Virus record (IMG/VR): IMGVR_UViG_3300045240_000072 | Location: 1-50,210 of that record | Source of the DNA: a virus | Taxonomy: Duplodnaviria; Caudoviricetes | Length of the DNA: 50,210 nt | Direction: 5' to 3' (one strand) | Shown here: positions 128-50,210 of the stretch, piece by piece | Position numbering within the stretch: the first letter of the stretch is position 1 | Layout of the letters: each line of letters opens with the position of its first letter | Translations under genes and position numbers: made by a program | The notes under the pieces: generated by a model | Told to the model about the DNA's origin: nothing | Database searches by the model: none | The model's input: only the letters and a program-made list of their open reading frames with translations

Positions 128-1732
128 CTTGCCGACCTTTTTACGCATCGGGTGATGACCGCCGGTTTCCCGCTTGTGCCGCTCGAATTCCTCGAACGGT
201 ACGCCGGTAATTTTACTGGCCGACATTTCGTAAATTTTACCATGCGTGCGGAACACATCGATACGCCATTGCTCGCCGGCCAGCATCGCCAAACCGACGG
301 CCTCGATCGCTGAATAATCGGAGCATATGAGATCGTGGCCCTCCGCCGCAATAAGCAGGCCGCGCAACGAGCCAGACACGGCTGGCATAGCGTCGCCGAA
401 ATAATATTCAACGGTGCGTAAATCGCGCGTGTTGACCACGGCTATCGCGTCGGCAGCCGCACCAGCGGTCCATTCCGGGATCGGTTTCTTGCCTGGCGGT
501 TGCGGCATCTTGCACCAAGGGCAGACGGTATGCTGCAGGCCGAAATGTCGACCGCATCCGCATTGCAACACGGGCGGCCCGCTATTCGGCAAGTTGGTTG
601 GTTGCGGTCCGTTACCGGTCGCTCGGCCCGTGCGCGCAGCGTGGTAACTAAACAGGTCATGCAACCGGCCGGCGCGAGTCGTTTGGTTCCGCATCGCAAA
701 TACTTTTTTGACCGAAGCGGACCCAATGGCCTGACGGATTTCCAGCGCGCGGCGGCAGTCGGGCGGCAACCCTTCGGATTTGAGCATTGATTCGATTGCA
801 TCCTCGTCCATATTCGACATGTGGATACCGCGCTGATGTAGCCAATTTTGCAGTTTGGCCAGCTCGGACGCGCGTGCCACTTGGCCGCCGGTCAATTGGT
901 ATAGTTCGGCGTTATATTTCGCGTGCGCCTGTTCGATCACAGCGATGCAGGCATCAACCGATACCGTGTCGACCTGGACGCCGCGCGTGTTGATTCGTTG
1001 GTCACATATCCAGAATTCGAGTTCTTCGCCCTCAAGGTCGGGGCAACGGCTCGACGCTTCGGCCTCGGCGATGATGTCCTGCTCGTTGTACGTGTACAGC
1101 TTGGCCGCGTCGATCGGGTCGTCTTCGGGCCGGACGCGGCGGCGCGGGTCGGATTTGGTCGGGTTTCTCGGCATGCTGAATTTTTTCAACAGTCGATCGC
1201 CGTCGGCATCTTTCTGGTTGACCAGGCGCATGACCTCGGCGGATTTACCGAGCGTGCCGGGGTAGCACGAGGCCCGAGCCTTGGCCATGGCGCAGCGTGT
1301 TGAGGCGATGTGTAGCTCGGGCCAGCCGTAGCGGGGAACGCAAACCTTGTTCCAGATCCAGCGTTCAAACGCTACGTTCCAGGCTTCCAGCCAACCCGAC
1401 ATCGCCTCGAAGAATAAGTCTTCCGGGTTCGCCATACCCGGACACCAGAATCGCCGCCCTTTACCGTCTTTCAGATCGTAATAGAGGGACAGCACTTCCG
1501 TGCTCGGGTGCTCGGCATAGACCGCCGCGCCGACGACCGTCAAGCCTTTTTTCGTTGCACCGGGCGGGCAATCCCACTTTTGCGTTGCGTCGTTCCATAT
1601 TTGGCCCGCTTCGCTGTACGTCTCGAAGTCGAAATCCGGCATCACCGTGGCCACGCCCATACCGGCGAATAGGCGCGTGCCGGCCGAAAGTTCCTGGACG
1701 GGACGTGGGGGTGGCGGTAAATTATTCGTCAT
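1..1732 (-). CDS. Phage family A DNA polymerase, N-terminal part (continues across the junction to 49530; ~761 aa in total)
   Basis: Partly hand-translated from ATG at 1732 (MTNNLPPP...): exonuclease motif DFDFETYS, ARTGR..G.GPQPTNLP, motif A DYSAIEA, motif B KLAELASGY. Same frame as ORF 49530..50126. Missed by the ORF track because it runs off the edge. Confidence 0.92.
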   Translation of the reverse strand, partial: MTNNLPPPPRPVQELSAGTRLFAGMGVATVMPDFDFETYSEAGQIWNDATQKWDCPPGATKKGLTVVGAAVYAEHPSTEVLSLYYDLKDGKGRRFWCPGMANPEDLFFEAMSGWLEAWNVAFERWIWNKVCVPRYGWPELHIASTRCAMAKARASCYPGTLGKSAEVMRLVNQKDADGDRLLKKFSMPRNPTKSDPRRRVRPEDDPIDAAKLYTYNEQDIIAEAEASSRCPDLEGEELEFWICDQRINTRGVQVDTVSVDACIAVIEQAHAKYNAELYQLTGGQVARASELAKLQNWLHQRGIHMSNMDEDAIESMLKSEGLPPDCRRALEIRQAIGSASVKKVFAMRNQTTRAGRLHDLFSYHAARTGRATGNGPQPTNLPNSGPPVLQCGCGRHFGLQHTVCPWCKMPQPPGKKPIPEWTAGAAADAIAVVNTRDLRTVEYYFGDAMPAVSGSLRGLLIAAEGHDLICSDYSAIEAVGLAMLAGEQWRIDVFRTHGKIYEMSASKITGVPFEEFERHKRETGGHHPMRKKVGKLAELASGYQGWIGAWKAFGADEFFTDEEMKQAILKWRAASPA

Positions 1733-1807
1733 CCGGCAAATACCCTTCAATGTCTTCCAAACGTTTCACCCCTGCGGGCAATACCGGTTTTGCGCCAGGG
1801 CGAAATT

Positions 1808-2029
1808 TCAAATAGCCGACAGGCAGCCCGAAGTCACGGCGTTGCGCTCGAAGTCGCGTATACCATCCGGGCTATCGGGCGACGGATGCGTCGCCCGATA
1901 GCCCATGACAAGCGCCACTTCCATCTCGGTAGCAGGAGGCGGACAATCTCCCTCGTAGATGTATTTTTCCGGCCCTTGGCCGGTCGTCTTCCAACCTCTA
2001 CCAAATGCGTAACGTTTCGCTTGTTTCAT
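1808..2029 (-). CDS. Hypothetical protein (MKQAKRYAFGRGW...), possibly frameshifted
   Basis: ORF in the leftward operon; internal ATG at 2029 preferred because the upstream region looks like structured non-coding RNA. Confidence 0.45.
   Translation of the reverse strand: MKQAKRYAFGRGWKTTGQGPEKYIYEGDCPPPATEMEVALVMGYRATHPSPDSPDGIRDFERNAVTSGCLSAI
1869..1904. repeat. Perfect 16-bp inverted repeat with 4-nt loop
   Basis: GGGCTATCGGGCGACG-GATG-CGTCGCCCGATAGCCC. Confidence 0.95.
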
Positions 2030-2202
2030 CGTACCCAATATGGTCAATTCCCGCGCTTTCGGGCTTCCTACTTGCGGGTATCCGCCCGTTTGAACGAACA
2101 ATCCGCCGCCATGTAACATCGCTCGTGGGCTGGCGGCGGTCAGTCAGCGCGGGCTGTGTACCACGATGACCAATCGCAGCCAGGATCGGATACCCCCACG
2201 AG
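2027..2202 (-). ncRNA. Candidate structured ncRNA or cis-regulatory RNA with two pseudoknot pairings
   Basis: Complementary pairs 2041-46/2167-72, 2050-57/2146-53, 2060-64/2084-88, 2103-11/2131-39, 2122-29/2195-2202 and 2077-83/2188-94 in an intergenic gap; strand inferred from the operon. Confidence 0.55.
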
Positions 2203-2217
2203 GGCCGCTCTACTCAT

Positions 2218-2511
2218 TTATCGCCGTGTCAGGGAGGCAGCAAACCGAACGATTAGGGGCGTTTCGATTTCTGTTGTCCCGCCCCAACGGTCCTTTTTCT
2301 CGACCACACGAGGGATAGGGTTCGGCAGAGCATCCAAAAGCGCATGCAGCTGTCCGACCTCGGCCACCAAAGCGTTTTTCTCTTCTCTCGCGGAATCTTT
2401 ACTATTTTCAGAACATTTCGCGGAATTTTTTGCGTCGTCGCGTTCCTTCGTGAGTATGCGAACTTGCTCGGTCAATTCCGTAACTTTTTGAAGCAATGTA
2501 ACTTTTGCCAT
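2218..2511 (-). CDS. Small coiled-coil hypothetical protein
   Basis: 97-aa ORF with heptad-like N-terminal half; AGAGGA RBS upstream. Confidence 0.75.
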   Translation of the reverse strand: MAKVTLLQKVTELTEQVRILTKERDDAKNSAKCSENSKDSAREEKNALVAEVGQLHALLDALPNPIPRVVEKKDRWGGTTEIETPLIVRFAASLTRR

Positions 2512-2557: not shown

Positions 2558-3499
2558 TTACCGCATGTGGCCATTCGCCACGAGTGCATCATCGGTCCAT
2601 TGCGGATCAGCCTTGAACTGCGCGTACGTGTACGTCGGATTCAACCACATGCGACCTGGCGGCAATCCGCCTGGCGCTGCAGGTGGCGCGGGTGGTGCGA
2701 CCGGCGCGCTAGGTGGCGGCGGAACCTGAACGAAGCTCGGCGCCGGATGCACGGGCACCGGCGGCGTGACAGGGGCCGCAGAGACCGGGGCGACGGGTGC
2801 CGGCACAGCAGGGGAGGCAGACGCCGGCCCTGGGGCCGGCGGTAGGTTTGGGAGTGTGGCGACTCCGACCGGTACAGCACTTGCGCCGGGCGGCAAGGAT
2901 GTGGCTCCGAATGTCGCATCTGCCAGGCTCGGACCTTGGATGATTTCCTCGCCATAGGCAATGCGGCAAACAATGGCCGGATTCCAGTACAGGCCGGGCG
3001 ATTGACTCGGCTTGTTGTCTATGACGGAAACGAGGACTTGCACGTAGTAGCCGGGCTTGATGGCTTGCGGTTCCATGATGAATTCGGGCGCGGCCCCGTT
3101 CAATGCGGCGGCGCGCGGCGCTTGGGCCGACGACATCCAGATCACCCAATTGCCGGGGTAACCGATACTGTCGCACGGTTTCTTGCCGCGCTTATTCGGA
3201 ATCTGGCTATCGCCGTCCGTGATCTTCCACGCGAAATCAGGGCGTTGCGTTTCGCCGTTGACGAATGCGGCGTGCGCCAGCGCCCAGATCGGGCCGCCCC
3301 ATGGTTCGTTGGCCCAGTGCGCGCAGCCGGGCGTTTTGGGGATGGCCACGCCTATGCTGAAACGCTGCGTCGGTTGGCCCGCGTTCTGGCCGGATTTGAT
3401 GACGAGCGGCTTGCCGTCGTAATCGGTCGTCTCCGTCGTGTAAAGCGATCCGCCGATAAGGCGACCGGTCGGGGTGGTAAATTTGTGAGCATTTGCCAT
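2558..3499 (-). CDS. Single-stranded DNA-binding protein (DUF2815/T7 gp2.5-like) with Pro/Ala-rich tail
   Basis: TPTGRLIGGSLY, WKITDGDS, IKPGYYVQV and PGLYWNP motifs; lies between the Cas4-like nuclease and the polymerase. Confidence 0.75.
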   Translation of the reverse strand: MANAHKFTTPTGRLIGGSLYTTETTDYDGKPLVIKSGQNAGQPTQRFSIGVAIPKTPGCAHWANEPWGGPIWALAHAAFVNGETQRPDFAWKITDGDSQIPNKRGKKPCDSIGYPGNWVIWMSSAQAPRAAALNGAAPEFIMEPQAIKPGYYVQVLVSVIDNKPSQSPGLYWNPAIVCRIAYGEEIIQGPSLADATFGATSLPPGASAVPVGVATLPNLPPAPGPASASPAVPAPVAPVSAAPVTPPVPVHPAPSFVQVPPPPSAPVAPPAPPAAPGGLPPGRMWLNPTYTYAQFKADPQWTDDALVANGHMR

Positions 3500-3512: not shown

Positions 3513-4652
3513 TCAGGTGGTAGGGAAAGACTTCAGTAATTCGTTGGTAGATTCCGGTACCAATTTCGGCGAGCCGGGCGGAAAAAAACTGTACTCGTCG
3601 ATCAGTTCGCGGGGTATGCCGGCTTTCTCCGCTTGCTTGGGTGTTAATAACGCCGGCTTGCGCAAATCAACGCCGAACATATCGCCGAGTGTGGCGATCT
3701 CCTGCGGCGGTCTGCCCCATGCTTGTCGACCCTTCGTGTACTCAATTGCATAACCCCGGACCCGTTCGCCGCGTTGGATCATTGAGTGCGCCGATTCCTT
3801 TAAGCCCGAGATACGGCCTTCGAGTGCGGCCTGGGCGCGTTCCAGCATGGCCAACTCGGCACCGGTTTGCATCGGCGTCAAGTCGACCGGTGTGCTACGC
3901 ATGGCCAGGTCCGCCGCTTCCAATGCGGTGCGCTGGTACGGCTCGCAGGCGTGGCGCCCGGAGCAATGCTTGCACTTCGGGTTCACTGTCGCGACCGGGT
4001 TCGGCTCATGCGCGGCTTCAGCAGCCATGCGCAGCTTGTTGACGTGGCCACGTAGTTCACTGGCGCGCACCGTGACGCGGCGGACCGGCTCGCGCAGGTA
4101 GCAACGGGGTTGAACGATAACCATATGCACCACGACGTGTTGATCGTCCTCCCCGCGCAACCCGAACCATTCGATTAATCCGGCCACATAGTCCATCAAT
4201 TGCCAGTTCTCGTATTCGTCCACGTAGTCATGTCCGAACTTGTAATCTATACAGTGTATGACGTGGCGTGAATCTCGAAAGTACGCGGCAAAATCAGGCG
4301 TTCCCCAGTTGTTTGCATGTACTCGGGAAATCGGAATTGTTTGCTCTACGAGCGGGTGGACTTCCGCACCTGAAGGATTCGAACGGGCCAATTCCTCGTG
4401 TACCGTATCGTAAAACAATTGCGCCCCGTCGCACATTTCATCGGTCAGCACAACCCCATTCGGCGCGATCAGACCGGCGTCAATCGGTTGCCCGGCGAAC
4501 AGTTGTTCGAACGCCCAATGTGCGGCGGTTCCCTCCGTTGCGGCAATTGAGTCTTCCGGCTCGGGATATCGTTGCCACATGCTCGGGGCGGCGGCGCACT
4601 TGACCCATATCGCGGCGCTGGACGGCGGAAGGAATGCGTGATTGCCGCTCAT
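3513..4652 (-). CDS. Cas4-like PD-(D/E)XK exonuclease (DUF2800 family)
   Basis: HAFLPPSSA, EGTAAH, WGTPDF, IDYKFG, NWQLMDY, IVQPR and CKHC..C motifs; ATG overlaps the upstream stop. Confidence 0.85.
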   Translation of the reverse strand: MSGNHAFLPPSSAAIWVKCAAAPSMWQRYPEPEDSIAATEGTAAHWAFEQLFAGQPIDAGLIAPNGVVLTDEMCDGAQLFYDTVHEELARSNPSGAEVHPLVEQTIPISRVHANNWGTPDFAAYFRDSRHVIHCIDYKFGHDYVDEYENWQLMDYVAGLIEWFGLRGEDDQHVVVHMVIVQPRCYLREPVRRVTVRASELRGHVNKLRMAAEAAHEPNPVATVNPKCKHCSGRHACEPYQRTALEAADLAMRSTPVDLTPMQTGAELAMLERAQAALEGRISGLKESAHSMIQRGERVRGYAIEYTKGRQAWGRPPQEIATLGDMFGVDLRKPALLTPKQAEKAGIPRELIDEYSFFPPGSPKLVPESTNELLKSFPTT

Positions 4653-30093: not shown

Positions 30094-32112
30094 GTGACTA
30101 CCCGCTCAATCATCGATATTGAAGTACGCGACCAGGCGTTCAAGGATTTCGCGCAACTATTCGCCAAGTACCAGAAGCAAGTCGAGAACGTTCCGAAGGG
30201 GTGGGACAAGGTCGGCGCGGCCATCAAAGCCGCAAATACCCCTTTCGATAAAGTCGCGGCCGGCGTCAAGAGTACCGTTGATCTTCTCAAGAACGCACAT
30301 ACCGCACAAGAAAAATTCCGTCTATCCGCGCAGCTTACCGGCAAAGCGTTCGGCTCGATGGCCACGGGGGCGGGGAAGCTTGCCAAGAATATCAAAGCCG
30401 TAACTCTGGACCTGTTGAAATGGGGCACGCTCACGGGCGTGTTTTCCGGCTTGCTCGGGGCGGGTAGCCTATTCGGAATGGACCGCCTCGCCCGTGCGGC
30501 AAGTACATCGCGTCGGGAAGCGCAAGGCCTGGGTATCTCGCCGGGCGAGCACGAAGCGGCTAAGGTCAATTACCAGAAACTTGTTGACGTCGATTCAATG
30601 CTATCGAAAATCAACGAGGCCAAGCTCGATGTGACCAAGCGTTCCGCATTCTCGGCGGCCGGGTTGCAGCCCGATGAATGGGAAAATAAAAACGCGGCGG
30701 ACATTCTTAAGACATTGATTCCGCAAATGAAAAAGCGATTCGACGAAGTCGGCGGGACGCAACAGGGTGCGCAAGCGGCGGGCCTGACACAATTTACCGA
30801 CATGGATACGTTGTTGCGCTTGAAAGCCGTCACGCGCGAGGAAATCGACGCGACTGGGCAACGGTACGAAGCGGATAAAAAGTTACTGGCTGTGTCGGAC
30901 GAAATACAGCGCAAGTGGCAAGACCTCGGCATTCAGCTACAGCGGTCCGGTTCGCAGATCGAAAATTCGTTCATTAAAGGGCTGGCCCCGCTCGCGCCAC
31001 ATATTGAGCGGTTGTCCGCAGCCGTGGCCAGCGCGGTTGATGTATTCCTTGCGAGCCCGAAAATAGGCGAATGGATCGAAGAAGTCGGCGCGGGGTTGGA
31101 AAAATTTGCCAAATACCTGACGTCGGACGATCTCGGCCACGACATAAAAGGGTTTCTTGACGCGGTCGACGTGTTCGCCGGCTCGTTGTGGGGCGTGGCC
31201 AAGACGATCGGCAAAGTGTTCAACTTCGGTAACGAGCAAGGGCTCCGCGCCAGTCAGTACCGCCAGCTCGAACAGATCGACAAAGTTGACCACAACCTCG
31301 CCAAGACATTGGAGCGGGTGCTAAAAAATCCCTCGGCGGCCAATAAATTCTCCGCAATGTCGTTGTCGACCCCCTCGGCCGACTTGGCGCAAGCAATGAA
31401 AGATGCGACGCCTGAAATGCGCGCGCTGGCGCAACAATTGCAGAATTCGACGAAACCGGGCGAAGCCGCAACGCATCAAGACGAAAAGGGAGGGTCGACG
31501 GATTTTGAAAAGGCGTTGCAGAATCTTCAACAACGTACGCCCGCGCTCGGCAACAAACCCGCGCCGACCCCGACCGCTGGTGACAAATTCAGCGCACTCG
31601 AGAAACAGTACAATTTACCGCGCGGTTTGCTCGCCAGCGTGGAAAAACAAGAATCCGGGGGCAACCCGAACGCTCGGAGCCCGGTCGGCGCGGAAGGGGC
31701 ATTTCAGTTTATGCCGGCCGCATGGAAACGGTACGGTGCCGGCGGCGACATTCATAACGAAATGGATTCGGCCCAAGCCGCGGCAAAGTATTATCATGAC
31801 CTGCTTGACAAGTTTCAGGGCGACCTACCGAAAGCACTTGCCGGGTACAACTGGGGCGAGGGCAACGTCGACCGCAAAGGGTTGAACGCGGCGCCCGAAG
31901 AAACGCGCAATTATGTCGCCTCAATCGTGGCCGACATGAACCGTCGAAACGCAGCGCCGCAAGCCGGATCGACCAGCGCGTCGTATGGCTCTACGCCCGC
32001 GCCAATGCCGCAACGTCAGCAAGCCCCTGCGCCGATTCAGGTCAACATCACGAAAGCGGCCGGTGCCGATGTCAATGTGCAGGTCAACGCGCTATCCGGT
32101 GTGCCAGGATAG
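30094..32112 (+). CDS. Tape measure protein with C-terminal lytic transglycosylase (SLT) domain
   Basis: Helical Ala-rich body; QESGGNPNARSPVGAEGAFQFMP, ALAGYNWGEGNV, PEETRNYV. Confidence 0.92.
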   Translation: MTTRSIIDIEVRDQAFKDFAQLFAKYQKQVENVPKGWDKVGAAIKAANTPFDKVAAGVKSTVDLLKNAHTAQEKFRLSAQLTGKAFGSMATGAGKLAKNIKAVTLDLLKWGTLTGVFSGLLGAGSLFGMDRLARAASTSRREAQGLGISPGEHEAAKVNYQKLVDVDSMLSKINEAKLDVTKRSAFSAAGLQPDEWENKNAADILKTLIPQMKKRFDEVGGTQQGAQAAGLTQFTDMDTLLRLKAVTREEIDATGQRYEADKKLLAVSDEIQRKWQDLGIQLQRSGSQIENSFIKGLAPLAPHIERLSAAVASAVDVFLASPKIGEWIEEVGAGLEKFAKYLTSDDLGHDIKGFLDAVDVFAGSLWGVAKTIGKVFNFGNEQGLRASQYRQLEQIDKVDHNLAKTLERVLKNPSAANKFSAMSLSTPSADLAQAMKDATPEMRALAQQLQNSTKPGEAATHQDEKGGSTDFEKALQNLQQRTPALGNKPAPTPTAGDKFSALEKQYNLPRGLLASVEKQESGGNPNARSPVGAEGAFQFMPAAWKRYGAGGDIHNEMDSAQAAAKYYHDLLDKFQGDLPKALAGYNWGEGNVDRKGLNAAPEETRNYVASIVADMNRRNAAPQAGSTSASYGSTPAPMPQRQQAPAPIQVNITKAAGADVNVQVNALSGVPG

Positions 32113-32886: not shown

Positions 32887-35270
32887 AAAAGAATTTCGGA
32901 TGGATCGTGACTTGGGCGTTGCTCACTTGGGTATTCACGTGGGGCGCGCTCGTGGCGCATGCCGGCAACTCAACAATCAACACGACCGTACCAGCGGCGA
33001 ATTCCGCGCTACAGTCCGCGCCGATCCGGGCGAATTTCCTGGCCGCCGCGACCGACATCAACGGCCTGATCGGGATGAACAACAGTGCCACGGCGCCCGC
33101 CTCGCCCGTTCTCGGCCAGTTGTGGCTAAACACGACCGCCACGCCGTATGTGCTGAACGTGTGGGATGGCGCGGCTTGGGACGCCGTCGGCACACTCAAC
33201 AGCTCGGCGCACCGGTGGCTTGTGCCGATCCCACAAGGCGGTACGGGCCTTACCTCGCCGGGTGCCGTGGGCAATGTGCTCACCTCGACGGGTACCGCAT
33301 GGGCCAGCACAGCGCCGACGAATATCGGCACGGTGACGAGTGTCGGCCTGATCCTGCCGACGGCGTTGTTCAACACAACCGGTTCGCCGATCACGACGTC
33401 GGGCACGTTCGCTGCCTCGCTAAACAGCCAATCGACTGGCACGTTTTTTGCGGGTCCGGCAACCGGAGGTAGCGCGGTTCCGACGTTTCGGGGGATTGCC
33501 GTATCGGATGTGCCGACGCTGAACCAGAATACGACCGGCACGGCGGCGAACGTTACCGGCGTGGTGGGCGTGGCAAATGGCGGGACGGCCCTTACATCAC
33601 CAGGGGCGAGCGGCAATGTGCTCACGTCGAATGGCACTGGCTGGGTCAGCTCGACGCCGACGGCCGGCAGCGTATCGAGCGTGGGGTTGTCGCTTCCACT
33701 GTCGCTTTTCAGCGTGTCGGGTTCTCCGGTCACGACGTCGGGAACATTGACCGGAACGTTGAATACCGAGCCGGCCAATTACGTGTGGGCCGGACCGACG
33801 ACGGGGAGCGCGGCGCAACCTGCTTTCCGGGGCTTGGTGCTCGGCGATCTTCCCTCGATCGCTTGCGGCAATCTATCGAATGCCACGACGGCATGCTCGA
33901 CGGCAATCGGGACGAGCGGGGCGGTACTACCCTTGATCAACGGTAACAACCAATGGGGCGGCTTTCAAATATTTGGCAACAACGTACTGGAATTGCTAGG
34001 GTCTTCGACAGGTGTTACTTCCTTCGCCAGCGCGAACGCATCGGCCACGAATTACACGATCACATTTCCGGCCGCCACAGGCACCGTGGCCACGACGGCG
34101 AACATCAACACTGCATTGCCCTCGACTTCGGCGCTATACAAAGGCACTGGCGGCGCAGGCGTGGCGCAAGCGGCGACGAGCGGGACGGATTACGCGCCGG
34201 CCACAAGCGGTTCGGCAATCCTGAAAGGGAACGGCGCGGGTGGGTTTTCAAGTGCCGTATCGGCGACGGACTACGCCCCCGCGACAACGGGCAGTTCGGT
34301 GCTCAAGGCCAGTTCGGGCGGATTCGCCAATGCGTTGAATTCCGACTTGCCCGCCATGTCCGCAACAGTCGGCGGGGCCGTCCCGACACCGCCGAACAAT
34401 ACAACGACTTTCCTGCGGGGGGATGCGACGTTCGCTGCCCCGGCTATCTCATGGTCCAGCCTAACCGCGCCGACAGCGAACAATAGCGTGACGGCAACGA
34501 TCAATACGACGCAAACTGTTCTTGACCATTTCGACACCAGCGCGACAGCGAACCAGGCGATCTTGGCCCTGGGCGAAGACGTGGCCAGTACGAAAGCGGC
34601 CGGCGCGGCGAATGCGGCGAATTTGCTCAAGATTTCCACGCTTTCCGGTTCGACCGCGTGGCCTTTCGCCGTGTATCCCCAAGGGGCGCGGACCTTTTAC
34701 CTCACGAATGTGGGGGCTTTGAATTTTGCAGGGCTATCGGATGCCGTCACTGGTGCGGGGGGTTCTGGCGTCAATTTCGCGGGAGGCCCTTCCGCTTCGG
34801 CGAATGCGGCCGGAAATATTACTTGGACAGGCGGCGCCAATTCTTCAAGTGGGCAGGGGGGTAGCGTAGGACTAGCCGGTGGTGCTGCGTCCAGCGGCCC
34901 CGCCGGAAACGTAGTCCTGACTTCGGGCCTGTCCACTTCCGGCGTGAATGGCACGATCAAAATGGTTGGCAACGTGGTGCTCGGCTATACGGCAAATTCG
35001 TCCGCCTCTTACACCGTCACGGCGACCGACTATTGCGTCACAAATAGCTTTGCGGGTACAACGACTTTGACGCTACCCGCTGCGGCTTCCTACACAGGCA
35101 TGATTCTGCATGTCCGCGTCGTCACCGCAAACACCGTAGTTTCCGCAAGTTCCAACATCGTCCCCCTTGCCGGCGGATCGACCGGAACTGCAATACTTGC
35201 CGCAACCGCCGGAAAATGGGCTGATCTGCAATCGGACGGCACGAACTGGCAAATCACCGCTTCAAATTAA
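32883..35270 (+). CDS. Fibre/adhesin-like G/S/T-rich protein with N-terminal signal peptide
   Basis: Repeats GTVTSVGL.LP..F...GSP.TTSGT, GGTG.TS.GA.GNVLTS.GT and TDYAPAT; N-terminus MKK-hydrophobic-AHA. Confidence 0.8.
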   Translation: MKKNFGWIVTWALLTWVFTWGALVAHAGNSTINTTVPAANSALQSAPIRANFLAAATDINGLIGMNNSATAPASPVLGQLWLNTTATPYVLNVWDGAAWDAVGTLNSSAHRWLVPIPQGGTGLTSPGAVGNVLTSTGTAWASTAPTNIGTVTSVGLILPTALFNTTGSPITTSGTFAASLNSQSTGTFFAGPATGGSAVPTFRGIAVSDVPTLNQNTTGTAANVTGVVGVANGGTALTSPGASGNVLTSNGTGWVSSTPTAGSVSSVGLSLPLSLFSVSGSPVTTSGTLTGTLNTEPANYVWAGPTTGSAAQPAFRGLVLGDLPSIACGNLSNATTACSTAIGTSGAVLPLINGNNQWGGFQIFGNNVLELLGSSTGVTSFASANASATNYTITFPAATGTVATTANINTALPSTSALYKGTGGAGVAQAATSGTDYAPATSGSAILKGNGAGGFSSAVSATDYAPATTGSSVLKASSGGFANALNSDLPAMSATVGGAVPTPPNNTTTFLRGDATFAAPAISWSSLTAPTANNSVTATINTTQTVLDHFDTSATANQAILALGEDVASTKAAGAANAANLLKISTLSGSTAWPFAVYPQGARTFYLTNVGALNFAGLSDAVTGAGGSGVNFAGGPSASANAAGNITWTGGANSSSGQGGSVGLAGGAASSGPAGNVVLTSGLSTSGVNGTIKMVGNVVLGYTANSSASYTVTATDYCVTNSFAGTTTLTLPAAASYTGMILHVRVVTANTVVSASSNIVPLAGGSTGTAILAATAGKWADLQSDGTNWQITASN

Positions 35271-38609: not shown

Positions 38610-40030
38610 GCCTGAGTTATTCTTTTCCGATTATTATCGATCAGACCGGCCTGGTGCCGCAGGCGCCAGCGTCCATCCTGTCGCAATTGATCGCCAATGT
38701 TTCAGCGTCGAATCCGGGGTACACGGCAAACCTGCCCGCCTCGCTGATCGAGGACGTGTCGAGCACCGATGTCGCCGCTATCGTGCTGTGCGACCAGGCG
38801 AAAGTGGACCTTGTCAACAGCCTGACGCCCTACGGCGCGAATGTTCCGCTGCTGATCCAGATCGGCAACCTGGTCGGCGTGCCGATCAACCAGCCGACGA
38901 ACACCAGCGTGTATGTCGTGTTCTCCGGGCCGCCCGGTTTCGTCATTGCGCAGGGCTTTATCGTTTCTGACGCATCGCACCAATACATCGTGCAGGATGG
39001 CGGAATCATCGGCAGCAACGGCCAAACGGCCCCGCTATATGCGCTGGCCTCCGACCCCGGCACCTGGGCCGTGCCGAGCGGTACTGTCATCGATCTGATC
39101 ACCAGCATCCCGGTAATTTATACGGTGACGGTATCGAACCCGAGCGATGGCCTACCCGGCGTGGCTACCGGCGAGACCGAGGAAAGTTATCGCGCGCGCG
39201 TCATCATGGCCTACGCGGCGCCGTCGCAAGGGATGGCCACGCTGCTGCGCTCGTTGCTCGGCACCGTCGCCGGCGTTCAAACCCGGCTGATTTCAATTTT
39301 GCAGCAATCGGGCGGCGGCTGGTCGGTGATCTGCGGCGGGGGCGATCCGTACCAAGTGGCTTATGCGATTTACACGGCATTGTTCGATATCTCGACCCTG
39401 GTCGGTTCGCAGCTCGCCGTGTCAGGCATCACGCAGGCGAATCCCGGTGTAGTGACGACGAACCTCGCCCATGGCCTGACAACCGGCGCAGTGCTGGAGC
39501 TGACTGGCGTTGTCGGCATGACGGCGCTGAACGGCGTTTCATTCACGGCAACGGTGCTTACACCGACGACTTTCAGCATTGGGGTCAACACGACTGGATA
39601 CGGCGCATACGTGAGCGGCGGCATCCTGGTGCCGAACCCGCGCAATGTCATCGTATCGATCAACGATTTTCCCGATATATACCTCGTGACCTACGTGAAC
39701 CCGCCCCAACAGGTCGTCACGATGATGGTGACCTGGCATTCGACGTCGCCCAATTTCGTCAACCCGGCGACTGTGGCGGCCAATGTGCAGATTTCCGAAG
39801 CGGCCTATATCAACACCGTGGTGGTGGGCCAGCCAATCAGCTTGTTGAAGCTCAAGGACGCTTTCACGTCCGTACTGCCTTCCTCGATTCCGGAAGAATC
39901 GATCCAGACACTGACTTTTGCTGTCTATATCAACGGAGTGCTGACCGCGCCGACCGGCAACCTGATCTACGGTGACCCGGAAAGCTACTTTTTCACCACG
40001 CAGAACGGCATCACGGTTACGCCGGTCTGA
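38606..40030 (+). CDS. Baseplate J-like protein with inserted FCCH-like beta-domain
   Basis: PGYTANLP.SLIED, ETEESYRARV, GGGDPYQVA; insert ITQANPGVVTTNLAHGLTTG. Confidence 0.88.
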   Translation: MSLSYSFPIIIDQTGLVPQAPASILSQLIANVSASNPGYTANLPASLIEDVSSTDVAAIVLCDQAKVDLVNSLTPYGANVPLLIQIGNLVGVPINQPTNTSVYVVFSGPPGFVIAQGFIVSDASHQYIVQDGGIIGSNGQTAPLYALASDPGTWAVPSGTVIDLITSIPVIYTVTVSNPSDGLPGVATGETEESYRARVIMAYAAPSQGMATLLRSLLGTVAGVQTRLISILQQSGGGWSVICGGGDPYQVAYAIYTALFDISTLVGSQLAVSGITQANPGVVTTNLAHGLTTGAVLELTGVVGMTALNGVSFTATVLTPTTFSIGVNTTGYGAYVSGGILVPNPRNVIVSINDFPDIYLVTYVNPPQQVVTMMVTWHSTSPNFVNPATVAANVQISEAAYINTVVVGQPISLLKLKDAFTSVLPSSIPEESIQTLTFAVYINGVLTAPTGNLIYGDPESYFFTTQNGITVTPV

Positions 40031-49465: not shown

Positions 49466-49535
49466 TTCATTTACTCCGTTGCGTTGTCGATGTCTGTACT
49501 TTAGTTGAATAATTCAACCAAGTCAAGCGTTATTT
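49465..49535. repeat. 71-bp near-perfect repeat, copy B
   Basis: Matches 20213-20283; includes the last codons of the polymerase (AAATAA). Confidence 0.95.
49498..49526 (-). promoter_or_regulatory. Repeated sigma70 promoter with palindromic operator, copy 4
   Basis: TTGACT-TGGTTGAATTATTCAAC-TAAAGT. Confidence 0.88.
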
Positions 49536-50210
49536 ACTGTACCGTTTTTTCCGCCATCCACCCGACGCCCGAACCGGCCAGTCGGCCGCCCACGCCGGCA
49601 TCGTGGCCATGACCCGTTCAAATTCCTCGATACTGCCGGACCCCTCGGGGATCTCGCATACGATTTCGTCATATACATGCAGCACAACCGGGTATCCGGC
49701 GCGCTCTAAATTCACGATCGCATGGCGCAGGATATCCCGGCATGTCGCTTGCGTGATGTTTTCCGCGAGGCGGCCGCCCCACGTATCCATACGTTGCCAA
49801 CCAGGTGCGCCGTTCTTGATATTCGTGTTCCACCCTTCATACGAGATCGACAGGCCCCCGCGTTCGTAGTTCGGGCGCAGCCTGGGCGCGTGATAAGTCA
49901 GGTACCGCCCGGAGATCAAACGCAAGTACACGGCGTCCCCGCGCATTTCGAACGTCATACCGCGACATTCGAATACTCGGCCCGGGTACTGAATCGCTTG
50001 AATGAAAGCGCCCTCGACGCCGTACATTTCCGGCACATTCCCCGCATGAGTGCGGCGAGACTGACCGCCCCACAATTCCACGATGGCCGGGCTTGCGGCG
50101 CGCCATTTAAGAATTGCTTGTTTCATTTCCTCGTCGGTAAAAAATTCGTCCGCCCCGAACGCTTTCCACGCCCCGATCCATCCTTGGTAACCGGAAGCCA
50201 GCTCGGCGAG
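49530..50210 (-). CDS. Phage family A DNA polymerase, C-terminal part
   Basis: L.SGR.L.Y..P, TWGGRLAENITQA..RD, motif C VVLHVYDEIVCE, MP.WA..WP, RY.K end. Confidence 0.93.
   Translation of the reverse strand, partial: LAELASGYQGWIGAWKAFGADEFFTDEEMKQAILKWRAASPAIVELWGGQSRRTHAGNVPEMYGVEGAFIQAIQYPGRVFECRGMTFEMRGDAVYLRLISGRYLTYHAPRLRPNYERGGLSISYEGWNTNIKNGAPGWQRMDTWGGRLAENITQATCRDILRHAIVNLERAGYPVVLHVYDEIVCEIPEGSGSIEEFERVMATMPAWAADWPVRASGGWRKKRYSK
50084..50210. repeat. Terminal direct repeat (assembly overlap), copy 2
   Basis: Identical to 1-127. Confidence 0.95.

Follow-up and report, generated by a model that had tools for sequence, protein, structure and literature searches.

A probable structured non-coding RNA with two loop dockings between replication genes of an uncultured phage

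The window analysed here is IMG/VR record IMGVR_UViG_3300045240_000072, a complete phage genome of 50,210 nucleotides (nt) with direct terminal repeats, and the element in question lies in a gap between replication genes at positions 2030-2217. Taking all the evidence together, the best explanation is that this gap probably encodes a non-coding structured RNA within the minus-strand replication mRNA, acting there as a leader in cis. Comparison among related phage sequences established the nested helices, the loop dockings, the constraint, the non-coding nature and the position of the element. From these we infer that the molecule acts as RNA rather than as single-stranded DNA, in cis, and on translation; the cis-leader mechanism is a tentative proposal. 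The phages that carry the element are uncultured and come from soil and peat; in their replication operon its neighbours are a small protein of an uncharacterised family and a family A DNA polymerase. It is rare for a folded RNA to have several interlocked helices, and the examples that have been studied are mostly ribozymes, riboswitches or protein-binding regulators.

The minus strand is the coding strand around the gap, so the fold belongs to the sense-strand mRNA. A preliminary description, made from the window alone, had presented six mutually compatible pairings in a gap of about 190 nt using plus-strand letters, which are the antisense of the RNA; the molecule is their reverse complement. 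With the strand corrected, the pairings themselves stood. A script check found all six helices to be uninterrupted Watson-Crick in the window (S1, 2041-46/2167-72; S2, 2050-57/2146-53; H1, 2060-64/2084-88; H2, 2103-11/2131-39; and the dockings 2077-83/2188-94 and 2122-29/2195-2202), and the two docking blocks 2188-94 and 2195-2202, described as adjacent, abut. The RNA element is about 165 nt long (2041-2202). From 5' to 3' the RNA reads stop block, docking strand, 5' strands of S1 and S2, hairpin H2, linker, hairpin H1, 3' strands of S2 and S1, and then a tail of 11 nt that leads to the AUG of a small open reading frame (ORF). The stacked closing stems S1 and S2 surround H2 and H1, whose loops pair side by side with one continuous strand 5' of the stems. 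These docking helices cross the nested helices and each other, giving two pseudoknots.

The comparison was made on three complete phage records with one RNA copy each: the window, L001 (52 kb) and L171 (44.9 kb). L001 is a close relative from a polymerase search of IMG/VR, and L171 came from an IMG/VR scan with the alignment of the small-ORF family. The parts of the RNA are listed below in 5' to 3' order after the gap itself; a cell is one pair in one sequence.

2030-2217, minus strand: gap carrying the RNA (188 nt; the length assumes that the small ORF starts at ATG 2029, the start kept in relatives)
2188-2202, minus strand: docking strand of 15 nt, RNA 5'-CUCGUGGG (block 1, pairing with the H2 loop) followed by GGUAUCC-3' (block 2, pairing with the H1 loop); invariant in L001
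2167-2172, minus strand: S1 5' strand, UGGUCA, partner 2041-2046; 17/18 cells paired in the three sequences
2154-2166, minus strand: internal loop between S1 and S2, containing CGUGGNACACAG, which is invariant in all three phages
2146-2153, minus strand: S2 5' strand, partner 2050-2057; 24/24 cells paired, 4/8 pairs double-changed in L171
2103-2139, minus strand: hairpin H2, 9-bp (base pair) stem 2131-2139/2103-2111 and 19-nt loop 2112-2130, of which 2122-2129 docks on 2195-2202; 27/27 cells paired
2089-2102, minus strand: variable linker between H2 and H1; 8/14 positions differ between the window and L001, about the neutral level
2060-2088, minus strand: hairpin H1, 5-bp stem 2084-2088/2060-2064 and 19-nt loop 2065-2083, of which 2077-2083 docks on 2188-2194; 14/15 cells paired, with one double change and one A.G (L171)
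2050-2057, minus strand: S2 3' strand, counts as for the S2 5' strand
2041-2046, minus strand: S1 3' strand, UGACCA, counts as for the S1 5' strand
2030-2040, minus strand: variable tail with the ribosome-binding region of the small ORF; 5/12 columns identical between the window and L001

The H2 stem had a base-pair probability of 0.94-0.98, and its closing pair is A-U, G-C and U-G across the three sequences. The H1 loop differs between the window and L001 by a single G-U-compatible change. Three blocks are unpaired in the model and yet invariant in all three phages, namely CGUGGNACACAG, the AUCCU that follows the docking strand and, within the loop of H1, a GCAA. Their invariance points to a possible binding or active site, and because of them a ribozyme, riboswitch or ribonucleoprotein (RNP) role keeps some likelihood.

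The window and L001 are identical at 159/188 positions of the gap (85%), against 296/528 (56%) at the four-fold degenerate sites of the flanking genes (binomial P 3e-18). The four-fold sites in the 80 and 100 codons adjoining the gap are diverged as well (24/39 and 25/45 identical), so recent local exchange does not explain the similarity of the gap. Identity within the gap was concentrated in the helices, hairpin loops and 5' block (118/124) relative to the linkers (35/53). For the window and L171, 103/165 positions of the RNA are identical (62%) versus 38-39% of four-fold sites. The 23 core substitutions between the window and L001 fall 6/9/8 by codon position, compared with 73/47/268 in the polymerase, and this absence of codon periodicity argues that the gap is not coding. 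ORF 1808-2119 (ORF103), whose conservation as a protein the preliminary description had named as a finding that would count against an RNA, is not kept: in L001 a stop interrupts its frame after 9 codons, the two gaps are unequal in length by 1 nt, and a protein search with ORF103 returned only a self-match. A single frame stays open, in the window across the whole gap and in L001 nearly to the small-ORF start, and this persistently open frame has no ATG, GTG or TTG start. Judged by these substitution patterns, the gap is under strong selection and is non-coding.

The substitutions also respected the pairing. Between the window and L001, 5/86 paired and 18/76 unpaired positions were substituted (Fisher P 0.0014). 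Read as the minus strand, L001 retains 43/43 pairs; read as the plus strand it retains 40/43, and the other three would be A.C. Its pair changes comprise one double change, from A-U to G-C, and three single changes that are compatible with G-U pairing. When the L001 substitutions were placed at random, zero broken pairs occurred in 0.02% of trials, and under a second null the types of substitution at paired sites are by themselves weak evidence. [quoted passage not shown] Across the three sequences, 82/84 cells of the four nested helices are paired and six pairs are double-changed, four in S2 (C-G to G-C, C-G to A-U twice, and U-A to A-U), one in H2 and one in H1. None of 500 shuffles reached the observed paired percentage, and slid controls were 29-41% paired. 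The result was identical on a model-fitted alignment and on a structure-blind MAFFT alignment, and RNAalifold by itself recovered S2, H2 and H1. Covariation among homologs, which had been suggested as a check, was in this way found. Three further helices were tried and rejected. The 5' hairpin P0 (2204-2208/2176-2180) and the longer 5' hairpin of RNAalifold are kept in L001 and not in L171, and a mini-hairpin within the H1 loop is broken in L171.

Both dockings are perfect in the window (15/15 pairs) and hold in L001 with one U-A to U-G change. In L171 they were sought blind, as the longest complements between the 5' region and each hairpin loop. The best complements were CACGG/CCGUG for the H2 loop and GGUUCC/GGAACC for the H1 loop, so that the L171 docking strand is CACGG followed by GGUUCC and matches its own loops in place of the window letters. 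The two dockings are directly adjacent, keep the window order and use the same end of each loop (P 0.006 with the 5' region shuffled and 0.005 with the loops shuffled). Relative to the window, the H2 docking of L171 shows two compensatory pairs, two outer pairs lost and one pair removed from both strands, and in the H1 docking the middle pair is removed from both strands. Selective constraint, the non-coding pattern, covariation and these dockings with changed letters together bear out the folded, doubly interlocked RNA of the preliminary description. The folded structure, both pseudoknots included, is very probably correct, as judged from three sequences of two effective lineages. A search for targets in trans of the loops and the docking strand elsewhere in the genome gave 3 matches at up to 3 mismatches, with 14/100 shuffles as good, which is the chance level.

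Within the single sequence, the evidence that the fold exceeds chance is weak. The fold energy of the exact gap had a z-score of -0.99, with 32/200 shuffles equal or better. The segment 2020-2220 scored z -1.85 when folded as the minus strand and -0.53 as the plus strand, and for the 132-nt core (2041-2172) z was -2.61, with 3/200 shuffles equal or better. At least 4 perfect helices of at least 7 bp were present in 1.6% of 3000 dinucleotide shuffles, and the docking topology, meaning two adjacent helices into two hairpin loops, was present in 13/3000. A cruder helix-packing score was not significant (30/300 shuffles). The same docking topology was met in 9/2001 sliding windows of the genome, which represent 3 loci including the gap, so a scan of 50 kb meets the pattern by chance about once or twice. 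The other two loci, at about 33051-33313 and 38726-38963, served to calibrate the chance rate. The earlier expectation that so interlocked an arrangement was unlikely by chance is therefore only partly upheld: shuffled controls were beaten weakly, the whole-gap z-score is ordinary and the topology recurs at 3 loci. As a point of method, little could be learned here from the energy and shuffle statistics of a single sequence, and one distant homolog settled the structure.

Further copies of the RNA were sought widely. Blastn in distant mode with 1700-2600 found no homolog among GenBank phages, and tblastn with two small-ORF proteins found no match there. The RNA was absent from the loci of the polymerase scan (80 from IMG/VR and 80 from GTDB; blastn and nhmmer on 81 loci, and models R1 and R2, the latter a later RNA model). 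Of two DNA pattern scans of IMG/VR, one gave only the L001 contig and the other gave two extra hits, which were rejected by the model. Scans with the window small ORF, alone or aligned with that of L001, or with the SSB yielded no further RNA copy; the extra locus of the SSB scan, L166, stops within the SSB gene. The closest polymerase relatives (P0002-P0024) are 64-81% identical, and their DNA lay outside the comparison. The one independent sequencing run, X2, spans 1700-2047 only and reaches just the S1 3' strand, so it is uninformative on the fold, and no RNA sequencing run carrying the sequence was found. Separately, model R1 gave a weak partial match on the plus strand at 31559-31693 (13.3 bits, E 0.1), which was missing from the results of model R2 at E up to 1.

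The phage record encodes tail sheath, baseplate, terminase and portal genes. The genes and sites around the RNA are as follows.

4697-3513, minus strand: DUF2800 nuclease (Pfam E 1e-34)
2558-3499, minus strand: Gp2.5-like SSB (phrog_7011, E 1.5e-65)
2218-2511, minus strand: ORF97, 97 residues, coiled-coil-like, present only in this genome among the three
2210-2220, minus strand: three-frame stop block TAAATGAGTAG, including the ORF97 stop, just 5' of the RNA
1722-2029, minus strand: small conserved ORF (ATG 2029), its 3' end overlapping the polymerase start
2-1732, continuing at 49530-50210 across the record ends, minus strand: family A DNA polymerase (Pfam DNA_pol_A, PHROG DNA polymerase)

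The match of the SSB to Pfam Enc34_ssDNA-bd (formerly DUF2815) reached only E 0.039. ORF97 is flanked by a 23-nt direct repeat (copies at 2202-2224 and 2542-2564, 91% identical) within which lie both the upstream stop codon and the block of stops in three frames. The ORF97 cassette is missing from L001 and L171, and in L001 the RNA directly follows the SSB gene; the cassette is either an insertion in this genome or a loss elsewhere through recombination between the repeats. The pattern TAANTGANTAG, which supplies all three frames with a stop codon, has only 2 matches genome-wide, at 2210-2220 and 2550-2560, both at gene ends, and two matches per genome were obtained in 0/100 shuffles. The L001 block at 3525-3535 is TAACTGAGTAG, the difference being limited to the spacer base, and no three-frame stop block is present in L171. 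The block may bar ribosomes from the downstream fold.

In all three genomes the distance from the upstream stop codon to the start of the RNA is 9-16 nt, and 11-16 nt separate its end from the small-ORF AUG. The preliminary placement directly upstream of the polymerase has to be amended, since the small ORF comes first. Its 3' end overlaps the polymerase start in the window and in L001, and in L171 another ORF lies between the two genes. At L171 2262-2439, a gap of about 178 nt was seen between the small ORF and an ORF of CxxC type, 68 residues long, that comes before the polymerase. The RNA is found together with the small ORF in 3/3 genomes, and both are absent from the other polymerase-related loci examined, a co-occurrence confounded by the three phages being mutually nearest relatives in the set. 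The small-ORF family has 15 hits at E up to 0.001 in a full HMMER search, its members including P0123-P0134 and L001 3718-4008, with conserved TSPGNPxWY and FRPGAKPVLPAGVKRLEDIEGY motifs. The protein has a basic glycine-rich N-terminus (RYxFGGG), the central TSPGNPxWY and a tail that is acidic (EDIEGYxPDDE); the family is matched by neither Pfam nor PHROG, the structure prediction was of low confidence (pLDDT 0.35), and an Atlas search with the small ORF produced no useful lead. Matches to giant repeat proteins were rejected, as they look compositional and Pfam finds Ig-like repeats there.

The small ORF of the window is split across two frames, with the break inside TSPGNPxWY, its most conserved motif, and at a perfect 16-bp palindrome with a 4-nt loop (1869-1904). 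In the X2 relative, one extra base after 1866 restores the frame, and four differences confined to one palindrome arm leave the palindrome imperfect. In appearance the split suggests either a template-switch mutation or a pseudogene. A weak match to the IS1222 frameshift element at the break (E 0.32) was below threshold.

As a cis leader, the RNA would lie compactly against the ribosome-binding region and would thereby set the output of the small ORF, and through the overlapping stop and start the output of the polymerase would be set relative to the abundant upstream SSB. The leader might work by binding a phage replication protein, and it may govern the translation or stability of the small ORF and, where coupled, of the polymerase.

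Several observations weigh against the fold or against this role. Only three sequences are available and two are close, so the covariation effectively rests on one distant comparison. The fold-energy z-scores are unremarkable for all three gaps (-0.99, -0.43 and -0.81), and in the nested ensemble the probability is low for S2 and H1 in L001 and for S1 in both the window and L001. L171 has one A.C mismatch in S1 and one A.G in H1, and its H2 docking shrinks from 8 to 5 bp, the two outer pairs being lost as A.A. No pair of S1 is double-changed, and a second possible partner, 9 nt downstream (2157-2163), fits equally well, which makes the closing stem the least certain helix. Since another ORF intervenes in L171, the link to polymerase expression is not general. 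No conserved expression platform was found, and the gap has neither a sigma-70-like promoter nor an intrinsic terminator on the minus strand. Two candidate switch helices were rejected. An anti-Shine-Dalgarno/Shine-Dalgarno (anti-SD/SD) helix between AUCCU and the ribosome-binding site beat shuffles only in L001 (as good in 21/2000 shuffles for L001, 1612/2000 for the window and 841/2000 for L171). The alternative pairing 2027-32/2163-68, which had been proposed to hide the downstream ATG, is present in the window and is not conserved, breaking in L001 at a central A.A mismatch.

A broader possibility, though an unlikely one, is that the element represents a new class of phage RNA with a complex fold and an active role of its own, as a ribozyme, as a sensor of a replication metabolite or protein, or as one half of an RNP with the small protein. 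If so, CGUGGNACACAG, AUCCU and GCAA would be its active or binding site, at the heart of the replication module. Complex folds locked by pseudoknots and carrying invariant unpaired nucleotides are typical of ribozymes and aptamers, and the element has both such a fold and those three invariant unpaired blocks. A self-cleaving ribozyme that severs the small ORF from the upstream genes in the operon transcript, or a riboswitch sensing a small molecule and changing expression, is nonetheless rather unlikely: none of the Rfam ribozyme and riboswitch families gives a match at E up to 10, there is neither a conserved terminator nor a consistently supported helix sequestering the SD sequence, and the hammerhead-like GAAA of the window is GCAA in L001. 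A catalytic or ligand-sensing RNA here would be a new class.

An RNA that stands alone or acts in trans, processed from the operon transcript or partnering the small protein, with a role in replication initiation or against host defence, is improbable. It would fit the shared presence and absence of the RNA and the small ORF, and a small protein with a basic glycine-rich N-terminus, an acidic tail and a low-confidence predicted structure. Against it, relatedness confounds the co-occurrence, the element is not bordered on the minus strand by sites resembling promoters or terminators, and the loops and docking strand have no other good target in the genome.

An element acting as DNA, whether a single-stranded initiation or origin structure or protein-binding inverted repeats in duplex DNA, would suit the location in the replication module between the SSB and polymerase genes, and covariation alone fits RNA and single-stranded DNA alike. 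Five pairs, however, are G-U on the sense strand (A.C on the other) with only one the opposite way, a bias that argues against duplex-DNA sites; the gap contains no iterons and no AT-rich unwinding region; and in all three genomes the fold is packed between a stop codon and a ribosome-binding site, as fits an mRNA element. A DNA-level role is therefore very improbable. That nothing functional folds, the helices being chance GC-rich complements or the region protein-coding, is hardly credible, for although the energy z-scores are ordinary, the docking topology occurs at two other loci and one frame is open, the gap is far more identical than neutral sites, codon periodicity is lacking, a start codon is missing from the open frame, L001 has a stop in the ORF103 frame, six compensatory pairs were counted, and the dockings were found again in L171.

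Known RNA families were searched with the 4227 families of Rfam 15, at the gathering threshold of the covariance models and then at E up to 10. At the gathering score the whole window gave 0 matches. At E up to 10 nothing in 1700-2600 of the window overlapped the gap, and 3400-3800 of L001 gave one weak match, sR11 (E 1), at 3714-3772 on the small-ORF start and none in the gap. ARAGORN found 0 tRNA or tmRNA genes in the window. Rfam holds phage-linked motifs named after DUF2800 and DUF2815, which the preliminary description had regarded as the obvious comparators while assigning the element to no known family. The neighbourhood is alike, with DUF2800, a DUF2815/Gp2.5-like SSB and a family A polymerase, but the element had no Rfam match in the gap of the window or of L001 even at E = 10, so that assessment stands.

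No published description of the element was found, and partial overlap with one catalogue is possible. In that source, a 2023 catalogue of candidate structured RNAs (csRNAs) of viruses and phages, 8495 candidates are reported from comparative prediction on IMG/VR intergenic regions, an approach like the one used here, with lengths of 29-151 nt (mean 67 nt) and 12 candidates upstream of GP32-type SSB genes (PMC10690425). On those lengths the fold of about 165 nt is too long to be listed whole, and part of it may be included (PMC10690425).

The closest functional parallel to a translational leader comes from phage T4. The gene 32 (SSB) leader carries a small two-stem H-type pseudoknot that lies 67 nt upstream of the gene and has an A+U-rich tract after it, and the gene 43 (DNA polymerase) operator is a single hairpin overlapping the ribosome-binding site; through these leaders a replication protein limits its own translation (PMC3014915). 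The present element resembles them as a structured RNA in a phage replication-gene leader, just upstream of the ribosome-binding site (PMC3014915). It differs in its size of about 165 nt, its four nested helices and two dockings, and its location, which follows the SSB gene and precedes a small ORF. Rather than an H-type pseudoknot upstream of the start of the SSB itself, it is a multi-helix junction; it has no A+U-rich unstructured tract, the tail from S1 to the AUG being only 11-16 nt; and the polymerase is of family A and not of the T4 type. If the element is a translational operator, T4-style autoregulation of replication genes would extend to an unrelated phage group, with a much more elaborate RNA.

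In hepatitis delta virus (HDV)-like ribozymes, twister ribozymes and the purine riboswitch, the hairpin loops of a junction are tied by extra Watson-Crick helices into a compact fold. Their conserved cores are absent here, and their Rfam models gave no match. The element is like them in having its hairpin loops tied down by extra helices, and unlike them in strand order, with both loops docking adjacently on one external 5' strand.

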